From an uncultured Candidatus Altimarinota bacterium (GTDB lineage: Bacteria > Patescibacteriota > Gracilibacteria > BD1-5 > UBA6164): a DNA stretch of 24,606 bases. Numbering within the stretch: the stretch's first letter is position 1; each line of letters opens with the position of its first letter. The notes under the pieces were generated by a model, which saw only the letters and a list, made by a program, of their open reading frames with translations, did not search any database and was not told the origin of the DNA. The stretch lies in contig CALLPO010000043.1 of assembly GCA_938015605.1 (NCBI GenBank), positions 1 to 24,606 on the forward strand. The letters run 5' to 3'. Positions 14,203-24,606 of the stretch are shown here, in pieces. The position numbers and the translations under genes were made by a program.

Positions 14203-15516
14203 ATGCTAAATAAACTTAAAAGATTAGTAGCTCTTGATAATCCATTAAGACTCTTATATCATAAAATTAGAGCAGTTATAGCTAATGTAAAATATGGTTT
14301 TCCACATAAGGAAATGACCATTATTTGAGTTACTGGTACAAATTGAAAAACTACTACTTGTAATATCATTGCTAAATGATTAAGAGAAGCAGGGAAGAAG
14401 GTATTTATGTTTTCAACAGTGAATATCATTGTTAATGATGAGGAGCATACAAATACTTCTAAAATGACTTCACCAGATGTTTTCACTCTCCAAGAATGGT
14501 TATCATATGCAAAGAAGCAATGATGTGAAATTGCTGTAATTGAAACAGCAAGTCATGGTATTAAGATGAATAGAATTTGGGGTATTAATTATGATATTGT
14601 ATGTCTTACAAATATTTCTCAAGATCATCTAGACCTTCATGGGACAATGCATGATTACGTTCAAACAAAATTGAAAATTTTTAAGAATCTAATGTTTTAC
14701 TCTAGAAAAAAAGGAGTTAAAAAAACATGAGTAATTAATATGGATGCTAACTATGCAGATCTTTTTTTAGCTGAGACATATGATACACTTTTTACATATT
14801 GAAAAGACTACAAAGCAAACTTACAACCAAATAAAACTACCACTAGTATTGATGGGACTGAATTTGATTTAAAAATACCTTGAGAGAATATTCATATTAA
14901 GACTTCACTCATCTGAGATTTTAATGTATACAATATAATGTGTGCAGTATGAGTCTTTACAAGTTTTGGTTTTTCTAGAGAACTCATTGAATCATCAATT
15001 GCTAAAGTAACAGGTATTCCATGAAGAATGGATTCTATTTCTAGTGAAGACTGATTTAAGGTCTATATAGATTATGCACATACAGAAGATGCTCTCAGAA
15101 ATGTACTTGAAACTTTTAGAGGACTTAAATGAGTTAAGAGAATTATCACAGTTTTTTGAGCTACTTGAGATAGAGATAAGTCTAAAAGACCAATAATGGC
15201 ACAAACAATTTCTGAATTATCAGATATTGTTATATTGACAGAAGATGATAATTATTCAGAAGATGTACAGGATATTATTAAAGATATGCTTCCTTGAATT
15301 GAAAGAAAAGAATGAGAGGATTTTTGGATTATTGCAGACAGAAAGGAGGCAATCAGGACTGCAATATTATCTGCTAGAAAATGAGATATTGTATTATTAG
15401 CAGGGAAGTGAGATGAGCACTCTATTATCAGAAATCACTGAGCTGATGACTGGCATGATAAAACAATAGCACAAGAAATTATTAAAGAAATATGAGAAAA
15501 TAAATTAGTAAAATAA
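14203..15516 (+). CDS. murE: UDP-N-acetylmuramoyl-tripeptide synthetase (MurE family), 437 aa
   Basis: IGVTGTNGKTTT, MTSPD, ETASHG, TNISQDHLDLH, GIPGRM, IDYAHTEDAL, VFGATGDRDKSKRP, LLAGKGDE. Confidence 0.93.
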
Positions 15517-15525
15517 AGATATTTA

Positions 15526-16983
15526 ATGGCATTATATTTAAAATACAGACCTAAAGATTTTGAGAGTCTTGTGTGACAAGATTTTGTAAAAGAAACTCTA
15601 CAAAAAGCTGTTGAAACTGATAAAACAGTTTGAGCATATTTATTGTGTGGACCAAGAGGAACAGGGAAGACCAGTACTGCAAGAATCTTTGCAAAAGCTG
15701 TGAACTGTGAAAAACCAACAAAAGGGAATCCTTGTAATACTTGTCCTATTTGTAATGCAATTAATACTGAAAGCCTGGTTGATGTTATTGAAATAGATGC
15801 AGCAAGTCATACTTGAGTTGATAATATTAGGGAAATTATAGAAAAAGCACAATTTAGACCTACTAATGCCAAATATAAGATTTATATTATAGATGAGGTA
15901 CATATGCTTTCTAAGTGAGCATTTAATGCTTTATTAAAGATACTTGAAGAACCACCTGAGTATGTTAAATTTATTCTAGCAACAACTGAAACACACAAAG
16001 TTCCAGAAACTATTATTTCAAGATGTCAGAGGTATGATATGAAGAGTATCAGTTTAGATGATATTAAATCTAGACTTACCTTTATTGCAAAAGAAGAAAA
16101 GATAAAAATAGATAAGCAATCTCTTGATTATATTTCTCAAAATGCTTGAGGAGCTCTCAGAAATGCTATTTCACTATTTGAACAATTAGCTACAGAGAAT
16201 AAAATTGAATTCAAAGACATTATAAAGAATCTTTGAATAGTTGAGGAAGATATTCTTTCAAACTTTCTTGATAAACTTATCAGTAAAGATAATAGTGTAG
16301 TTTGAGATTTTGAACAACTTATATCTGATGGGAAAAATGTTAAGCTATTTTTTAAAGAATTATTATTCTATACTAAAAAAGTTTCTTTAAATCTTATTAA
16401 AAATTCTAAAGATATTTCCTCTTATCTTCACATCTTAGATGTTTTAGATTCTACTTACTCTAAAACTAAAGTTTCTCTTGATGAAAATACTACTTTTTTA
16501 ATTTGAATTCTTAAAATTATTACTGATTACAGCCCTGTAATAAGTGTAAGTAATGGTTGAGCTAAGATTTCCACTCAATCAGCTGTACAGGTAAAAAATG
16601 CAGATAAAACACCTAAAGCACATACACCAAAAAAAGAAATACCTACTCAAGAAATTTCAGCAACAGATGTTTGAGATATATTTTGAGATTCAGAACCAAC
16701 AACTCCAAAAACTACAATAGAAACTCTTTTGCCAGAAACAAAAGCTACTAGTGATTTTAATACTACTGAATATCTTTCTCATTTAAAAAAGAACTGAGCT
16801 AAAGCTATGGTTACTTTAAGTATTAAATGAGCATCAATTTCATTAAATGATAAAAACCTTGAGCTTAAATTCAAAACTAAATTTGCTTTAAACTCAGTAA
16901 ATAACCCTGATACTATTGCTTTATTAAATAAAGGATTAATAGATATGGGTATGAGTGATGCTACTGTAAAATTAATTGGTTAA
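15526..16983 (+). CDS. dnaX: DNA polymerase III subunit gamma/tau, 485 aa
   Basis: [19 protein letters not shown], zinc-module Cys, [45 protein letters not shown]. Confidence 0.97.
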
Positions 16984-17010
16984 AAAAGAGCAAGTAAATT
17001 GCTCTTTTTT
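16982..17010. terminator. Bidirectional intrinsic terminator between dnaX and patatin
   Basis: Perfect AAAAAAGAGCAA-GTAAA-TTGCTCTTTTTT, touching both stop codons. Confidence 0.88.
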
Positions 17011-17791
17011 ATAATTCTAATTTTTTAGCATCCTTATATCCAATATTAATAAACTCATCTACTTTATTGAAATCAATAATATCAAGTTTTCAAAAGTCAG
17101 GCCTTACTAATTGAATATCTTTTCAATCTGTTAAAATACTTTGGTCCTCATTTACTTTCATCATAAGTATGACAGAACGCTTAATTATTTCAAAATTATT
17201 TTTAAAAAATCCAGATTTAAAGTTCATTCACATGATATTTTTGGTTTCATGTATTGTTCATGTGTTTATTTTAAGTGCAGATACAGCAATTACATTCTTT
17301 CAATCAAGTACTTGTATAGGGAGATTCATCATTATTCACCCATCTACATAATCCTCTCAATCAATTTTTTGAGGTTTAAATATTCATGGAAGACTAATAC
17401 TCGCTCTAAGAGCTTCTGTTATTTTTCCACTTGTAAATATTCTAGATTCAGCTTTTTCAATGTTTGTAGCTACAATTTTAAGGGAAATTTTTGTATCTTC
17501 AATTTTAGTATCTCTAAAAATTTCCTCCAGCTTCTTTTTGATTTTATTTCACTTCAAAAGTCCAGTTTTAAATTCTGGATCAACAAGTTTAAGTAAATTG
17601 AGTTCATTTGCAAAATCTTGCATTTCTTGGCTATTTTTTCAAATAGCCAGCATTGCTGCAACTATTGCTCACATAGAAGTACCAGAAACCTCATTAATTT
17701 GAGTTTTCTGCTCTTCTAAGTATTTAATTACTCAAATGTGAGCCAATCATCTTGCAGCTCAACCTCATAGAGCTAAGGAGTAGTTTTTCAT
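17009..17791 (-). CDS. Patatin-like phospholipase (RssA/NTE type), 260 aa
   Basis: LALGGGAARGLAHIG, GTSMG nucleophile elbow, RASISLPGIF, YVDGG. Several motif Gly are TGA. Confidence 0.92.
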
Positions 17792-17807
17792 AGTTATAGC
17801 TTATTTA

Positions 17808-19685
17808 TTATAAACTTTTAGTTTTAACTTCTTCTATCATCCTAGTAGTAAACTCTTCTAAGCTTTCACTAGTTTGTTCCTTAGTTTTGTAATTTCTTAC
17901 AGCAACTGTTCAAGCTTTTTCTTCTTCTTCTCAGATAACAAGAATATAGTTATTATGCATTTTTTCAGCATTTCTTACTTTTTTATTAAGTCAATCAGAA
18001 GAGTAGTCTCAAGTAACTCTTAAATCAGCATCTCTGAGTTCTTGCTCAACTTTTTTAGCATACTCGTCAAATTTCTCAGCAACTGGAATGATTTTAATTT
18101 GCCTTGGAGCTAACCAAAGTGGAAAAGTTCCTGCAAAGTGTTCTATAAATACTCACATTCATCTTTCAAAACTTCAAGTAATGGCTCTATGAATTACAAC
18201 TGGTCTTTCTTTTTCATTTTTCTCATTTGTATATTCTAGTTCAAATCTTTCTGGAAGATTAAAATCACATTGAATAGTAGCTAATTGCCATTCTCTTCAG
18301 ATAGCATCTTTGAACATAAAATCTAGCTTTGGTCCATAAAATGCAGCTTCTCATTCAACTCTTTTGTATGGAAGTTCATTTTCCCTAGCAGCTGAGTCAA
18401 GTGCTTCTTCTGCTTGTTCCCAAACATCATCACTTCCAAGATATTTAGATTTATCTTCTCATCTTACAGATAAACTTACCCAATATTCTTTAGTCATTCA
18501 CATGGTAGTGTAGAACTCTTTGATAATATCTGTAATAATTTTTACTTCATCCTTAATTTGTGATGGCCTACAAAATAGATGCCCATCATCTTGAGTAATA
18601 GCTCTTACTCTTGTAAGTCAAGAAAGTTGTCCTGATTTTTCATCTCTGTATATAGTTGCTGGTTCAAAATATCTAACAGGCATATCTCTATATGAGAACT
18701 GATTGTCAGCAAAGATTTGCATATGGTGAGGACAATTCATAGGTTTCATTATGAATTTGTCTTCTTTTCATTGAACTCTAAAAAGCTCATCACCAAACTT
18801 AGCTGCATGACCTGAAGTTTCGTATAATGCTTCTTTTGCAATATGAGGAGTCCAAACTCTATCGTATCATTTTCTCTTATGCATATCCCAAAGATAGTCT
18901 TCAAGTTCTTTTCTAATGATCATTCCAGCTGGTTGCATAAGGGGGAGACCTGGTCCTATTAAATCTGAAACAGTGAATAATTTTAATTTAGCTCATAGAA
19001 TTCTGTGATCTCTTTTTTTAGCCTCTTCAAGCATTTTTAAATGAACATCAAGTTCTGCCTTATCATTAAAAGCATAAGCATAAATTCTAGTTAATTGCTG
19101 ATTTTCAGCATTTCCAAGCCAATAAGCTCAAGCTACTCTTGCAAGCTTAAAAGAATTTGCATCAAGTTCTCTTGTATTTTCTACATGAGGCCCAGTACAC
19201 ATATCAATAAATTTAAGATTTTTTACTTGATCTCAGTCTAATTCTTCAAAGCTTTCATAACTATTATTCTTAGTATAATCTTGAAGGGAAGAGTAGTAGT
19301 CAGAATTTTTTCATTTTGAAGTATTGAAATAAAAACTAATTTTATCAGAGATTTTTTCTTTATTTTTAAAATCTCAAGATTCAATTTTGTCAACAAGTTC
19401 ATTTTTAAATCATTCTCACATTGTGTCTAGAATTTCTCTTGCTTGCTTAAAATCAACTTCAAATTTCTTGAATTCTTGACCTTGAGAAATAATTTTCTTC
19501 ATTGTGTTTTGAATTTTTTTCAAATCTTTATCAGAAATGATATCTTCACCAAAATCAAAATCATAGTAAAAACCATCATCTGTATCTGGTCATGTAGCAA
19601 TTTTAGCTTCTGGATAGAGTTGTTTTACAGCTTGTGCCATAATGTGTGACAATGAATGTCTTTTTGTAGATAGTGGGTATTCCAT
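17808..19685 (-). CDS. thrS: Threonine--tRNA ligase, 625 aa (lacks the N-terminal TGS domain)
   Basis: [82 protein letters not shown]. Confidence 0.98.
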
Positions 19686-19705
19686 GGGGGATTAATTATT
19701 TAATT

Positions 19706-19819
19706 AAAAAACTTCTATTTAATTAATAGAAGTTTTGTGTATATTTTTTATTTTCAGCACAAAATCAACTATTTTAGAATAGAAGTTGAAGTTAAGGTTA
19801 CAAGTTGTGCTAGGTACAT
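19706..19819 (-). promoter_or_regulatory. Leader-peptide transcription attenuator of thrS
   Basis: Thr-containing leader ORF with mutually exclusive 1:2, 2:3 and 3:4 helices. 12-bp terminator (19708-19719 with 19725-19736) and U tract, about 20 nt before the thrS ATG. Confidence 0.75.
19769..19819 (-). CDS. Putative thrS leader peptide MYLAQLVTLTSTSILK (16 aa; Thr at 8, 10, 12)
   Basis: ATG TAC CTA GCA CAA CTT GTA ACC TTA ACT TCA ACT TCT ATT CTA AAA TAG. AAGG lies upstream of the ATG. Confidence 0.7.
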   Translation of the reverse strand: MYLAQLVTLTSTSILK

Positions 19820-19846
19820 TATGCCTTGTTTAGAAAGTACTTATGT

Positions 19847-19874
19847 ACTATATTAATTTAGGTATTTTTGTCAA
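19847..19874 (-). promoter_or_regulatory. Sigma70-type promoter for the thrS leader
   Basis: TTGACA (19874-19869), 16-bp spacer, TATAGT (19852-19847). Confidence 0.65.
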
Positions 19875-19940
19875 TGATATTATATAAAATTATTAATGAA
19901 TATGTTGCTATTAATTATTTTTTTATGTTATTATACATTT

Positions 19941-20720
19941 ATGAACAACAAAGTAGTATATAAATCAAGACAAGAGGCAATTCTAATAGATGAATTGGCT
20001 AGTTCATCTATGATTTCAAAAGAACAGTTACTTGAAATAAAAGAGCATTACAATAAAAATGTACCTTACCACAATTTTTTACATGCATTAGTTGTAGCAG
20101 GGAAGGTACTAGAGCTTCCTACAGAGGATTATAATATTATTGAGGTAAGAAGTTTATTTGTTGCTGCTTTATTTCATGATGCTGGACATAATTGAACTGC
20201 AGAAGATTTAGATGAATTTAGGTCTTTGGATATTGCATTTGAAAACATAGAAAAATTTGAAACAAAATATAATTATGAATGAATAGATTTTCCTATAGTG
20301 AGAAAAGCAATTATTTGAACTGTTTTTAAAAATAGAGCTATTAATACAGGTAAATATGCCAGACTAATGGCTGATCTTGATAATCACACTCTTGGTTTAG
20401 ATTTTGCTGATTTTTTGTATTATACAGATTTTTGAATGGCTGTTGAAATATGAGAACAAACTAATTGAAAAACTGACATACAAAAATGGTTTCAAAATAT
20501 TAGTTATTTTAAATTCTTAATGTGAATTAATAAAAAAATATTTTTGGTTCAGGATTTTCAAAATGATTTATTACAAAATTGTTTACTGAATATTGAAAAA
20601 TATATCAACATTTCACAAAATGACTTCCAAACATTAAAATGAGATAAGTTAATTGATTTATTTAATGTTTGGAAAAATAATGATATTACTCTTGAAGAAT
20701 TTAGAAGTGAATTCTTTTAA
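19941..20720 (+). CDS. HD-superfamily phosphohydrolase with class-I cyclic-nucleotide phosphodiesterase-like motifs, 259 aa
   Basis: NVPYHNFLHALVV, AALFHDAGHNG, LMADL. Start placed at 19941; the in-frame ATG at 19896 looks like promoter sequence. Confidence 0.8.
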
Positions 20721-20800
20721 TATTAGTTTTTTACAAGTAAGTCGTAGTTTTTAATATTATTCAGATAATTTATTTTCAATAAATGATTAATGTTATTTTC

Positions 20801-20829
20801 TTGTTTATTTGTTAATAGAATGTTATTAT
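20801..20829 (+). promoter_or_regulatory. Putative sigma70 promoter of pilT-cyclase
   Basis: TTGTTT, 17 bp, TATTAT with extended TG. AGGAG RBS at 20856-20860. Confidence 0.45.
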
Positions 20830-20864
20830 AACTATATAAGCTAATATTTATTAAAAGGAGACAT

Positions 20865-21905
20865 ATGTTAATTTGAAAGATCCTAAAAAAATGACTAGAG
20901 TTAAATGCTTCAGATATTATTTTATCACCTTTATCTAAGCCATCAATTAAGGTCAACTGAGAAGTAATTCAAGATGAAAGTTTTGAAATTTTTGAAAGGG
21001 AAGTACTTGATAATGAAATCATGAGTATAATGTCAGAAAAGCAAAGAAGAGAATTTGTTGACACTAAAGAACTTGATTTTGGTATAGATATGAAGGGGTA
21101 TTCTAGATTTAGAGTAAATGCTTTTATTCAAAGAGATTGATATGCTGTTGTATTTAGACCTATTAAATCTGAATTACCTACTTTTGAACAACTATGAGTA
21201 CCACAACAAGTGCTTGATTTTGTAGAAAAAAAACATGGACTTATACTTGTGACTTGATCAGTAGGGTCTTGAAAATCTACTACTCTTGCAGCATTATTAA
21301 AACATATAAATCAAAATCATAAAAAACATATTATTACAATTGAGGATCCAGTTGAATTTATACATAAAAATGATAAAAGCCTTGTTGAACAAAGAGAAGT
21401 TTGAACAGATACTCATAGTTTTGATAATGGTTTAAAATATGCCTTAAGACAAGCTAGTGATGTAATACTTGTTGGGGAAATGAGAGACTTAGAAACATTT
21501 AGATTAGCTCTAAGAGCTGCTGAAACTGGGAATTTAGTTTTAGCAACCCTCCATACATCTGGTGCAGCGAGAACGGTTTCAAGAGTAATTGATATGTTTC
21601 CATGAGACGAAAAAGAACAAATTAAACAACAATTAAGTGAATGATTAATTGGAGTTGTGTGGCAAGATTTATTAAAAAGAGCTGATGGTAAATGAAGAAT
21701 TCCAGCATGTGAAGTACTTGTTAATTCTACTAGTGTTTCTAATATGATTAGAAAATGACTTACTCATCAAATTGATTGAGTTATTGAAACAAGCAGAGCT
21801 GAATGAATGGTTCCTATGAAAAAATCATTAGAAAAGTTATTTGGAATGGGATTAATATCAAAAGACAACTATGAGTATAATTTAAAATATCTTTCAACTA
21901 AATAA
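20865..21905 (+). CDS. pilT: Type IV pilus retraction ATPase PilT family, 346 aa
   Basis: [61 protein letters not shown]. The AIRNLIRE box is degenerate (SVSNMIRK). Confidence 0.95.
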
Positions 21906-21906
21906 T

Positions 21907-22701
21907 ATGAATTCAAATTTAAAGGATGCATTAATTATCAATCAACTTATAGAAGATAATAATGATTTTTGAGATAAAATTAGAGATGTTGATGACAACA
22001 ATATTTATAAATTATTTAAAAGGCTCTATGTTAAAAAAAATATAATTGAAGCAGATTTAACCAATTTGCAGGATAATTTTAATAAATTTATACCTGAAAA
22101 ATTTCTAACAGAGATATGAAAAAAGTCTAGTTGAAGAATCAATATTGGAACATCTGTGGAAAAATTTTTACATATAATGTTTGTTGATATTTCAGGTTTT
22201 ACAAAAATGAGTGAAGAGCTATCTTCTGCTAATACTCTTATATTATTGAACATATATTTTGATGCAATCGTAGAAATATCTAAGAAAAATTGATGATATG
22301 TTGATAAATTTTTATGAGATTGAATAATGCTTGTTTTTGATTGTAAAAGCAGTGATTCTGCAGTTAAAACTGCAATAGAAATTAGACAGTTTATGGATAA
22401 AATAAACCTTTCAAAATTACGTAAAGATATTACAGTTTGAATCTGAATACATTCTTGAAAAGCAATTTTATGAACAATTGGATCAAGACATAGAATGGAT
22501 ATTACTATTATTTGAGATAATGTAAATATTGCATCAAGGCTTGAAGATATGACAAGACGTTTGGATGATTGGATTATTATTTCAAAAAATACTTATGATC
22601 TGATTGATAAGAAAAAAGATCTTTCAATCAGTAATCTCTGAGAAAATGAAATTAGAGGTAGGGATTCAAGGATACATTTATACTGAATTTCTGAAGAATA
22701 G
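21907..22701 (+). CDS. Class III nucleotide cyclase, predicted adenylate cyclase, soluble, 264 aa
   Basis: MFVDISGFTKMSE (metal Asp), YVDKFLGDGIM (Lys ATP selector, second Asp), GIGIHSG, DITIIGDNVNIASRLE (Thr selector, catalytic Asn/Arg). Confidence 0.93.
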
Positions 22702-22753
22702 TACTTCACATAATATTATTTAAGAGAATTTTTAATATTAGCATGAAATATAT

Positions 22754-22790
22754 AAAAAAACTAACATCTATATTGGATGGTAGTTTTTTT
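22754..22790. terminator. Bidirectional-type intrinsic terminator after the cyclase
   Basis: AAAAAAACTAACATC-TATATTG-GATGGTAGTTTTTTT, one mismatch. Confidence 0.8.
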
Positions 22791-22963
22791 ATTGCCTTAA
22801 AGTAGGAGAGAGGTAGTTACTAAATTAATTATTATAAATAATAGTAATTTAATTAACTAAATTAATTTAATGAACAAATATATGGTTAGTTAAATTAATA
22901 CACTAAAACAAGATTTAGCACAAAAGCAAGAAAGCTTACTTATCAAGAAAGACTCACAATATA

Positions 22964-22991
22964 ACTACACATAAGTTATATTATGTTAACT
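22964..22991 (+). other. dif site (XerC/XerD recombination site)
   Basis: ACTACACATAA-GTTATA-TTATGTTAACT. Compare E. coli dif GGTGCGCATAA-TGTATA-TTATGTTAAAT and B. subtilis ACTTCCTAGAA-TATATA-TTATGTAAACT. Lies in a gene-free gap. Confidence 0.8.
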
Positions 22992-23145
22992 ATAATAAAT
23001 AACACTAATTATACCCTTTATTTGACAATGTATACAATATTTGTACTAGAGATTCACAACTACTTATTACCTATTAAATAATGTGTACATAAATTATTTC
23101 TTTATTTAATTATTATAATTGTTTTAATAGAAAATTAATTCAATT

Positions 23146-23169
23146 AAAAAAAGAAGTAAAACTACTTCT
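23146..23169 (-). terminator. Intrinsic terminator overlapping the Nudix stop codon
   Basis: AGAAGTA-AAAC-TACTTCT with a 7-U tract on the minus strand. Confidence 0.6.
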
Positions 23170-23830
23170 CCTCTGTTTTATCTTTGATGATAGTTAAAAA
23201 ACTCTTAAAGTAATTTTTATATTCTTTTATGTAAAAATGTAAATCTTGAGTGAATGTATCTGGAAATTGTTTCATCTCATCCTCTAATTCATTTATTGAA
23301 TAGAAAAGGACTCATTTAGCTTCTTTATCAACATTTTTAACAGATCATCAATACACTCATATGTAGATATGAATTTTATTTGAGATAGTTATTTTTTCCC
23401 CTTTAATCAATTTTTCTATATTAATTATTTTAGTATCAACATGTTCCACAACTGCTGTTGAGCTTATATATTTACTTAATAGATTATAAGTTTTAAGAAA
23501 ATCTTGATGATTATTTAAGACTATTGAAGGAACTTTTAATTCTTGAACACTTTCAACCATAGCAGTAAAATCAGCTGTATCACCACTTACTACATGTCAT
23601 CAAATAGATTTATCCAAAAGGTTTGCATTATGTCCCTTATTTGAAGATCTTTTTTGAAGTATTAACTCTCACGATTCATTGAATAAGAAAATATTAATTA
23701 CTTCTATAGCCTTTGTGGGTTCTCAGTTAGTTTTAAATTCATTAACTTGTTCCTTATAAAATTCATCTCTATCCATTGGTATAGAGATGAATGGATTCTT
23801 TAAATCAAATGTATTTACAGTTTCGGACAT
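23162..23830 (-). CDS. Nudix-fold hydrolase (IPP isomerase type 1-like N-terminal motifs), 222 aa
   Basis: IFLFNESGELILQKRSSNK...DKSIGGHVVSGDTADFTAMVESVQEL. Confidence 0.85.
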
Positions 23831-23841
23831 TCATAAATTGG

Positions 23842-24039
23842 TTATATTCCGTCTTTAACACTCATGATATAACTATTTGTTGTTTCTAAGTTACATTGTT
23901 CTGAGAATTTTTCACTCATAATAGGATTATGAATAATGTTAGCACAATATTCTATATTTTCTGGTACAAAAGAATTATAAGCATATAAATCTGCTTGAGG
24001 AGCTATGTTCACTAAGGCAAAGAAAAGTAAAAAGTCCAT
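23842..24039 (-). CDS. Small hypothetical protein, 65 aa
   Basis: In the supplied track. Short hydrophobic N-terminus, two Cys, ends 11 nt before the Nudix start. No homology recognised. Confidence 0.45.
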   Translation of the reverse strand: MDFLLFFALVNIAPQADLYAYNSFVPENIEYCANIIHNPIMSEKFSEQCNLETTNSYIMSVKDGI

Positions 24040-24157
24040 TGATTTAACAGTTATTATTAATATACTTATTGTATAAGAAAAAAGATATTTGTAAAACTAT
24101 TTTGTTAAAAACTTATAAATGAGCCTTATTTAAAGGCTATACTATATTGAACTCTAG

Positions 24158-24606
24158 ATGAAGCACCTCAAAATAAAAATTGATAAACTGGAATTTGTGG
24201 AAGAAACTATATTGAAAGATGTAGATTTTGTGATTAATGAAAATGATAGAATTTGTATTGTTTGAAATAATGGAAGTGGTAAAACTACTCTTATGAAAAC
24301 AGTCTTGTGAGAAATCAAAAGTTTTGACGGTTTTATTGAGAATGTTGGAAATCTAACACTCGGTTACCTACATCAGATATATTCTGATAATGAGGAAAAA
24401 CTAGTTAATCAAGAGCTTAAAGAAGGCTTTATAGATGTTATTATAAAAGAAAAAGAACTAAAATTTCTTGAAGAAGAGATGACTAATGATCCAGATAATA
24501 TGCAGTTAGTTGAAGATTATTCTGTTTTACTAGAGCAATTTAGCATTATTGGATGATATGACTATAATAATAAGATTCACCAAGTTGCTAATGGTATGTG
24601 AATACT
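24158..24606 (+). CDS. ABC-F family ATPase, N-terminal part (runs off window end)
   Basis: ILKDVDFVINENDRICIVGNNGSGKTTLMK, LGYLHQ, and the ABC-F arm ending GGYDY. Confidence 0.9.

Follow-up and report, generated by a model that had tools for sequence, protein, structure and literature searches.

The known controls of thrS, the gene for threonyl-tRNA synthetase (ThrRS), are a translational operator in E. coli, which mimics the anticodon arm of tRNA-Thr and is bound by ThrRS, and the T-box of the Firmicutes. Hardly any work exists on gene regulation in the Patescibacteria (candidate phyla radiation), since most of these bacteria have not been cultured. A survey of attenuators in amino-acid and synthetase operons by Lopatovskaya et al. 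2010 (PMID 20198868) predates the genomes considered here and might list thrS in other phyla; with that survey outside the scope, no leader-peptide attenuator of thrS was found in Rfam or in the full-text literature. Attenuators of this kind are described for other synthetase genes. In E. coli, pheST is preceded by a leader-peptide (pheM) attenuator rich in cognate codons, with alternative hairpins and an intrinsic terminator (PMC1262725). Classical attenuators have been predicted by comparative genomics for trpS and leuS of Streptomyces (PMC1262725), and a His leader attenuator has been predicted in the same way for a paralogue of hisS in Bacillus (PMC2965389). The full-text literature yielded no leader-peptide attenuator in Gracilibacteria or in the candidate phyla radiation, and the first-pass annotation, which knew of none in Patescibacteria, was borne out on this point.

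The DNA analysed here, a stretch of 24,606 nucleotides referred to as the window, comes from a Gracilibacteria genome and carries upstream of thrS an element that is very likely a ribosome-mediated (leader-peptide) transcription attenuator, which senses charged tRNA-Thr and controls thrS. Genetic code 25, in which TGA encodes glycine, is needed to read the window, and table 11 gives only fragments in the region. The features of the locus, listed in the direction of transcription, are as follows.

19847-19874, minus strand: sigma-70-type promoter, TTGACA (19874-19869), 16-nt spacer, TATAGT (19852-19847), 11 of 12 matches.
19812-19826, minus strand: helix P0, 3 bp between AGG (19826-19824) and CCU (19814-19812), detected by covariation.
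19769-19819, minus strand: leader ORF of 16 codons plus TAG, ATG at 19819-19817 and TAG at 19771-19769, encoding MYLAQLVTLTSTSILK.
19805-19811, minus strand: outer part of segment 1, AGCACAA (codons 3-5), which pairs with 19762-19756 in the MFE and masked folds.
19798-19796, 19792-19790 and 19786-19784, minus strand: Thr codons of the leader ORF, ACC (codon 8), ACT and ACT.
19778-19789, minus strand: inner part of segment 1, the ORF end UCAACUUCUAUU, which pairs with the stop-codon region in the MFE fold.
19756-19773, minus strand: segment 2, AAUAG (which holds the stop codon UAG) followed by UUGAUUUUGUGCU, from folds and duplex energies.
19725-19739, minus strand: segment 3, CACAAAACUUCUAUU, partner in the antiterminator and 5' arm of the terminator, from duplex energies and masked folds.
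19706-19736, minus strand: intrinsic terminator, 12-bp stem (19736-19725/19719-19708) with a 5-nt loop and a U run (19711-19706), from the MFE fold.
17808-19685, minus strand: thrS, the regulated gene, encoding a threonyl-tRNA synthetase of 625 aa, from the code 25 ORF and Pfam.

The thrS ORF contains 22 in-frame TGA codons, read as glycine with table 25, and its product was identified as ThrRS by the Pfam domains tRNA_SAD, tRNA-synt_2b and HGTP_anticodon. Pfam detected no TGS domain in this ThrRS (17808-19685, minus strand), whose N-terminus opens directly on the editing-domain motif RHSLSH; the TGS domain that is usual at this end seems to be absent. A divergent HD/phosphodiesterase-like gene begins at 19896, so that 19686-19895 constitutes a divergent control region of 210 nt. 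The assembly (1.16 Mb, 167 contigs, 80.6 % complete) carries tRNA-Gly(UCA) and tRNA-Thr(GGU). Threonine synthase (TIGR00260) was not found in this 80.6 %-complete assembly, and the organism may depend on imported threonine, in which case raising ThrRS when charged tRNA-Thr drops would be the main response of the cell to scarcity. Relatives found by exact-word matches are metagenome-assembled genomes of Candidatus Gracilibacteria, and the runs listed as containing the locus are all DNA runs, from marine metagenomes, with no RNA run among them. Exact-word matches in a Flavobacterium record and in a record labelled as Saccharibacteria lie inside coding regions and were discarded as chance.

The promoter TTGACA-16-TATAGT is the top promoter-like site within 15000-24606, and transcription of the leader and thrS would start near 19840, about 20 nt 5' of the leader ORF. 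Of 84 related loci, 71 have a promoter with at least 10 of 12 matches whose -10 element ends 26-32 nt 5' of the leader start. The leader in the window has three Thr codons only, none of them adjacent. Helix 1:2 consists of an outer helix, AGCACAA (19811-19805) with TTGTGCT (19762-19756), and an inner helix, TCAACT (19789-19784) with AGTTGA (19770-19765); the outer part of segment 1 is nearly invariant in sequence among related loci, and the inner part, UCAACUUCUAUU, resembles the terminator 5' arm. The alternative partners of segment 2 are segment 1 and segment 3, the pairing with segment 3 being the antiterminator. The terminator is built of an A-tract, a hairpin and a T-tract, a form often seen at the ends of genes in this genome, and its end at 19706 is followed after 21 nt by the thrS ATG, a gap too short to hold a promoter for thrS alone. 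Folding of 19845-19686 yielded helix 1:2 together with the 12-bp terminator as the MFE structure (-23.5 kcal/mol; z = -3.1 against 200 dinucleotide shuffles), and the duplex energies in the window are -10.3 kcal/mol for 2:3 and -10.6 for the terminator arms. The sequence AACTTCTATT is repeated in the leader and the terminator arm. The first-pass annotation had proposed the promoter, a leader ORF with ACC, ACT and ACT at codons 8, 10 and 12, both pairings of helix 1:2, and a terminator 3:4 followed by U's; the promoter (19874-19847, 11 of 12 matches) and the leader ORF with its Thr codons are present as proposed, both pairings were recovered in the MFE fold at -23.5 kcal/mol, and the terminator occupies 19736-19708 in that fold, with the U run extending to 19706.

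In the proposed mechanism, plentiful charged tRNA-Thr would allow the ribosome to reach the UAG inside segment 2 and to cover this segment, upon which the terminator 3:4 would form and RNA polymerase would stop at 19706. When charged tRNA-Thr is scarce, the ribosome would stall at the Thr codons, first at the ACC of codon 8, which is nearly invariant and is rare in the genome, and would cover segment 1 (AGCACAA and the ORF end) while segment 2 is left free; free segment 2 would pair with the emerging terminator 5' arm, and the polymerase would read through into thrS. In a leader that is not translated, helices 1:2 and 3:4 would both form and transcription would terminate. Behind this scheme stand the observed anatomy, conservation, covariation, link to threonine genes and thermodynamic plausibility of the attenuator. 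We infer that termination, ribosome stalling and transcription-translation coupling actually take place there.

The upstream regions of thrS were fetched from 30 relatives, and the same leader was evident at once in 11 of them. A covariance model built on the 5' part of the leader, designated R1, matched exactly once in each of 81 family genomes out of 96 (~85 % of the family), spread over 26 of 29 genera, a recurrence that places the arrangement far beyond chance. Samples of three families of the order gave matches in 57 of 65, 6 of 66 and 0 of 19 genomes, and in a class-wide sample R1 matched only in the own family (8 of 10). The model also gave a second, weak match in the own genome (C144:9736-9827, E = 0.04), which lacks a Thr-rich ORF and was put down to chance. 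The comparative set comprised 87 loci, corresponding to 85 distinct leaders, from relatives that are not independent samples. In 83 of the 87 loci tblastn placed thrS downstream of the leader and on its strand; two more have thrS on that strand at 2.2 and 4 kb, and the remaining two loci are at contig ends. All 85 loci that are long enough to show it thus have thrS downstream. The distance from hairpin to thrS ranges from ~20 nt to more than 100 nt, and sometimes whole genes lie between them.

Some of these intervening genes belong to threonine metabolism. In genome G105 (locus L076) the first gene after the leader is a threonine synthase equivalog, thrC (TIGR00260, 186.9 bits against a cut-off of 167.1), and a NUDIX gene and then thrS, ~4 kb downstream, come next; in genus g14 (L079, L080, L082, L085 and L086) the leader is followed by ThrH, a homoserine kinase/phosphoserine phosphatase (NF010109, 256.5 bits against a cut-off of 133), and then by thrS. 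The position of the leader ahead of thrC and thrH is independent functional evidence for a response of the element to threonine, and in some genomes the attenuator is, judging by gene order, also in control of threonine-biosynthesis genes. Other genes between leader and thrS encode NUDIX hydrolases, S51 peptidases, and VKOR-like and response-regulator-like proteins. MazF/PemK-like, DUF559 and KilA-N genes lie between the attenuator and thrS in L032, L034 and L109, and are apparent selfish insertions in the attenuated leader region. An ORF of 127-128 aa, for which no family was found in Pfam or NCBIfam, occupies the same position in L060 (genome G002, of the genus of the window), L013 (G021) and L099 (G020). 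In L060 and L013 this ORF is followed by a conserved hairpin-like sequence of ~55 nt (GAYTGTGTCAGGGTCTAATCC ... CACAATC), which gave no Rfam match, and the ORF and the hairpin-like sequence may together be a small mobile or regulatory module.

Thr leaders were also seen where the sequence is unrelated. Two other families of the class were sampled through 14 regions upstream of thrS, and eight of these have leaders of the same design (for example MRQLTTTRTTTTD, MRVLRMTTTTTTTD, MKQARQLTTTTTTGTTP, MHLGTTTTTTTSQ and MLNIITTTTGTNTTQ), with a hairpin and a T run after each, which shows the strategy to be wider than the homologous family and to be maintained despite sequence turnover. The loci L140-L145, L149, L152 and L153 (families f14 and f21) have 7-8 Thr in 13-17 codons and are missed by R1. 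In the second family, a GC-rich member has MVAQPDTTKTTSRTRATV and a terminator. A crude scan of the own genome found no leader-peptide attenuator other than that of thrS, and candidates upstream of valS and leuS were rejected, as they look like the ends of neighbouring genes.

The leader is a reading frame in all of the relatives. It spans 14-25 codons, with ATG or GTG as start and TAG or TAA as stop in 87 of 87 loci; no leader uses TGA as stop, and in several codon 5 is itself a TGA, which is read through only under code 25. Every one of the 85 distinct leaders is open in frame 0, whereas the other two frames are open in 4 and 48 of the 85. The anchor position is a Thr codon in 86 of 87 loci, mostly ACC, a codon that makes up only 4.9 % of the Thr codons of the genome. 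The region beyond it varies in length by whole codons only, and mostly by Thr codons; Thr accounts for 34 % of the residues after the anchor, against 5.7 % in the long ORFs of the genome, and its runs reach 7-8 per leader, as in MSLAQLDTTTTTTTSKN and MLAQLVTTTTTTSLTRGIC. The positions of the peptide that are not Thr vary (Q, G, L or R at position 5; V, E, D, G, M or N at position 7), and silent positions within the helices are conserved across leaders, a pattern that indicates selection on the RNA and the Thr codons, not on the peptide product. The conservation of a Thr-rich upstream ORF in relatives, which the first-pass annotation had made a check of its reading, was thus found for start, stop and terminator in 87 of 87 loci and for the anchor Thr in 86.

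In every species the ORF end is similar to the 5' arm of the terminator, and the stop-codon region to its 3' arm, and these similarities covary, as would be expected if segment 1 and segment 3 both paired with segment 2. The repeat AACTTCTATT, to which the first-pass annotation had drawn attention, is the signature of this double pairing in the window and covaries across species. Mean duplex energies were compared, free of any alignment, between cognate and non-cognate segment pairs from the 87 loci, with the following results.

2:3 duplex: cognate -10.6 against non-cognate -7.6 kcal/mol, cognate better in 78 of 87 loci.
1:4 duplex: cognate -6.6 against non-cognate -4.7 kcal/mol, cognate better in 69 of 87 loci.
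3:4 duplex: cognate -11.5 against non-cognate -5.7 kcal/mol, cognate better in 87 of 87 loci.

All 87 loci have a terminator, consisting of a hairpin and a U run, past the leader; the median distance from stop codon to hairpin is 37 nt, and compensatory changes were found at 11 of 20 consensus pairs. A conserved motif after the stop codon, GAUUUUUGU, is complementary to ACAAAAAC, likewise conserved, ahead of the terminator stem, and this complementarity lengthens the antiterminator to ~15 bp in many species. Covariation in the outer 1:2 helix is mixed, with 20 of 44 variant loci compensated.

The effect of ribosome position was modelled by folding the transcript up to the terminator loop with a 31-nt footprint masked, to see whether the 5' arm would already be taken up when the 3' arm has yet to be transcribed; such folding treats by thermodynamics, and only approximately, what is a kinetic process. 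Across the 87 loci, the mean probability that the 5' arm is paired was 0.83 for a ribosome with its A site on Thr codons 8-11, 0.24 for one with its A site on the stop codon, and 0.63 without a ribosome. Pairing was higher in the stalled state than at the stop codon in 85 of 87 loci, and a clear switch was predicted in 68 of 87; the corresponding probabilities in the window were 0.80-0.81 for a stalled ribosome, 0.02 for one at the stop codon and 0.28 for the free transcript. Equilibrium folding at full length gave a less clear-cut picture: in the window, a stall on codon 8 lowered the terminator to a probability of 0.16, and stalls on codons 10 and 12 left it at 0.95. The restriction of the effect to codon 8 fits the invariant ACC placed just after AGCACAAC, since a ribosome waiting there covers that strand. 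The antiterminator 2:3 and the stall/stop switch proposed in the first-pass annotation thus hold up in these models, the former at -10.3 kcal/mol in the window and with the cognate pair better in 78 of 87 loci, the latter with the predicted direction in 85 of 87 loci by ribosome-mask folding. Covarying helices, which it had suggested looking for, are also present: P0, the terminator stem and the cognate 2:3, 1:4 and 3:4 duplexes covary.

The upstream ORF and hairpin might act on translation or mRNA stability instead of termination, as a processing or stability element or by re-initiation at thrS. The hairpin in the window ends just 21 nt 5' of the thrS ATG, as such a role would have it, and leader genes have been proposed to raise, by re-initiation, the translation of downstream genes (PMC4833913). 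We regard this reading as very unlikely, because a U run follows the hairpin in all loci, the distance from hairpin to thrS extends from ~20 to more than 100 nt with whole genes sometimes intervening, and the covarying likeness of segment 1 to 3 and of segment 2 to 4, together with a stop codon within segment 2, is what a termination switch needs.

Even less likely is a structured RNA that binds a ligand, tRNA or ThrRS, in the manner of a riboswitch, a T-box or an E. coli-type operator, and in which the ORF would be incidental. It would account for the strong nucleotide conservation of the 5' part and for the covariation of helix P0, and the motif CUUGUAA resembles the anticodon loop of tRNA-Thr(UGU). 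Rfam gave no match in the whole window at gathering thresholds and none in 19600-19950 at E = 10, a range in which the covariance model of Thr_leader (RF00506) also found no match even at E = 10. The T-box (RF00230) had no match in the window, and none of 31 relatives scored above the gathering cut-off, which together with the empty Rfam search at E = 10 counts against a ligand-binding RNA. Sub-threshold T-box-like matches of 26-33 bits (gathering score 93) were noted at G010:C4:177990-178145 and in three other relatives. The UGU of the supposed anticodon mimic is not conserved, the codon being also GAA, GAU, AUG or GGA, and CUUGUAA was rejected as a mimic on the ground that the triplet varies among relatives. 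Features of an E. coli-type thrS operator were not seen in the element, in which the anticodon-like UGU varies and which a terminator, joined in some genomes by whole genes, separates from the thrS start. A ligand-binding RNA also sits poorly with a variable region whose changes in length keep the frame and consist mostly of Thr codons, and with leaders of other families that are unrelated in sequence yet have the same Thr runs. Least likely of all is an independent micropeptide gene, conserved as an ORF with its own promoter and terminator and unrelated to thrS control, since its non-Thr residues vary freely while synonymous sites in the helices are conserved instead, it always lies upstream of thrS or threonine genes, and no thrS promoter fits in the 21 nt past the terminator.

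The attenuator reading leaves the initiation site of the leader to be described. The AAGG ahead of the leader, taken for a ribosome-binding site in the first-pass annotation, was ruled out as a Shine-Dalgarno sequence: Shine-Dalgarno-like motifs are found upstream of 2.2 % of 456 long ORFs of the own genome against 3.1 % at control positions, so there is no genome-wide enrichment, and its AGG is a strand of the covarying helix P0. G is depleted ahead of the start codons of these 456 ORFs, and translation in this Gracilibacteria genome appears to be initiated without Shine-Dalgarno pairing. Helix P0 places the start codon of the leader in a 9-nt loop, abuts helix 1:2, and ends 11 nt upstream of an invariant CUU|G. 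In a MAFFT alignment that was not fitted to structure, P0 is paired in 87 % of cells, and sliding the partner by one to three columns left 11-54 % paired. Cells with changes on both strands number 33 against 11.3 +/- 2.4 in shuffled alignments, a value that none of 500 shuffles reached, and the variants are AGG/CCU, AGC/GCU, AAG/CUU, AGA/UCU and AGU/ACU, with ACC/GGU in the second family. It is conceivable, though we consider it rather doubtful, that P0 serves as a device for timing or gating, peculiar to these bacteria that lack Shine-Dalgarno sequences, either as a pause-type hairpin or by display of the start codon; suppression of late initiation is a further candidate role, and all three are speculation. 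If such a role were real, the attenuator would rely on a structured initiation site, which is undescribed for classical attenuators.

From a conserved attenuator of the leader-peptide type it would follow that in Gracilibacteria the coupling of transcription to translation is close enough for the ribosome to steer RNA polymerase. Leaders that never stop at TGA, and sometimes read through it, are an independent cis-regulatory confirmation of code 25. The leader of the window has no TGA and is thus directly testable in an E. coli reporter or a cell-free system. Taken together, the locus very probably represents a Thr leader attenuator in a bacterial group for which none was found described, and on the evidence of the alignment the novel addition is the covarying helix P0 around the leader start codon.

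The element comprises, in silico, a leader ORF, a cluster of cognate codons, a terminator, an exclusive antiterminator and cognate target genes, and by those defining features that can be tested in silico it is, at the level of sequence, a classical attenuator. Among its closest counterparts is pheST with pheM, also a leader-peptide transcription attenuator before a synthetase gene. It differs from pheST in sensing Thr and not Phe, in belonging to another phylum with code 25 and no Shine-Dalgarno signal, in having no sequence relationship, and in the extra covarying helix round the start codon. The predicted classical attenuators of Streptomyces trpS and leuS and of the Bacillus hisS paralogue resemble it in preceding synthetase genes outside the Proteobacteria, but they concern other amino acids and lineages, and none is on thrS or in Patescibacteria. 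With E. coli thrL (RF00506) it shares a leader rich in Thr codons and the 1:2 / 2:3 / 3:4 logic, and it likewise precedes threonine-biosynthesis genes in G105 (thrC) and genus g14 (thrH), whereas thrL combines Thr codons with Ile codons and regulates thrABC instead of thrS. As with the E. coli operator and the Firmicutes T-box, thrS would be regulated through its 5' leader by the status of threonine or tRNA-Thr, but the sensor is predicted to be the translating ribosome and not ThrRS or uncharged tRNA. The Gracilibacteria attenuator would thus be a third evolutionary solution for the control of thrS, beside autorepression by ThrRS and T-boxes.
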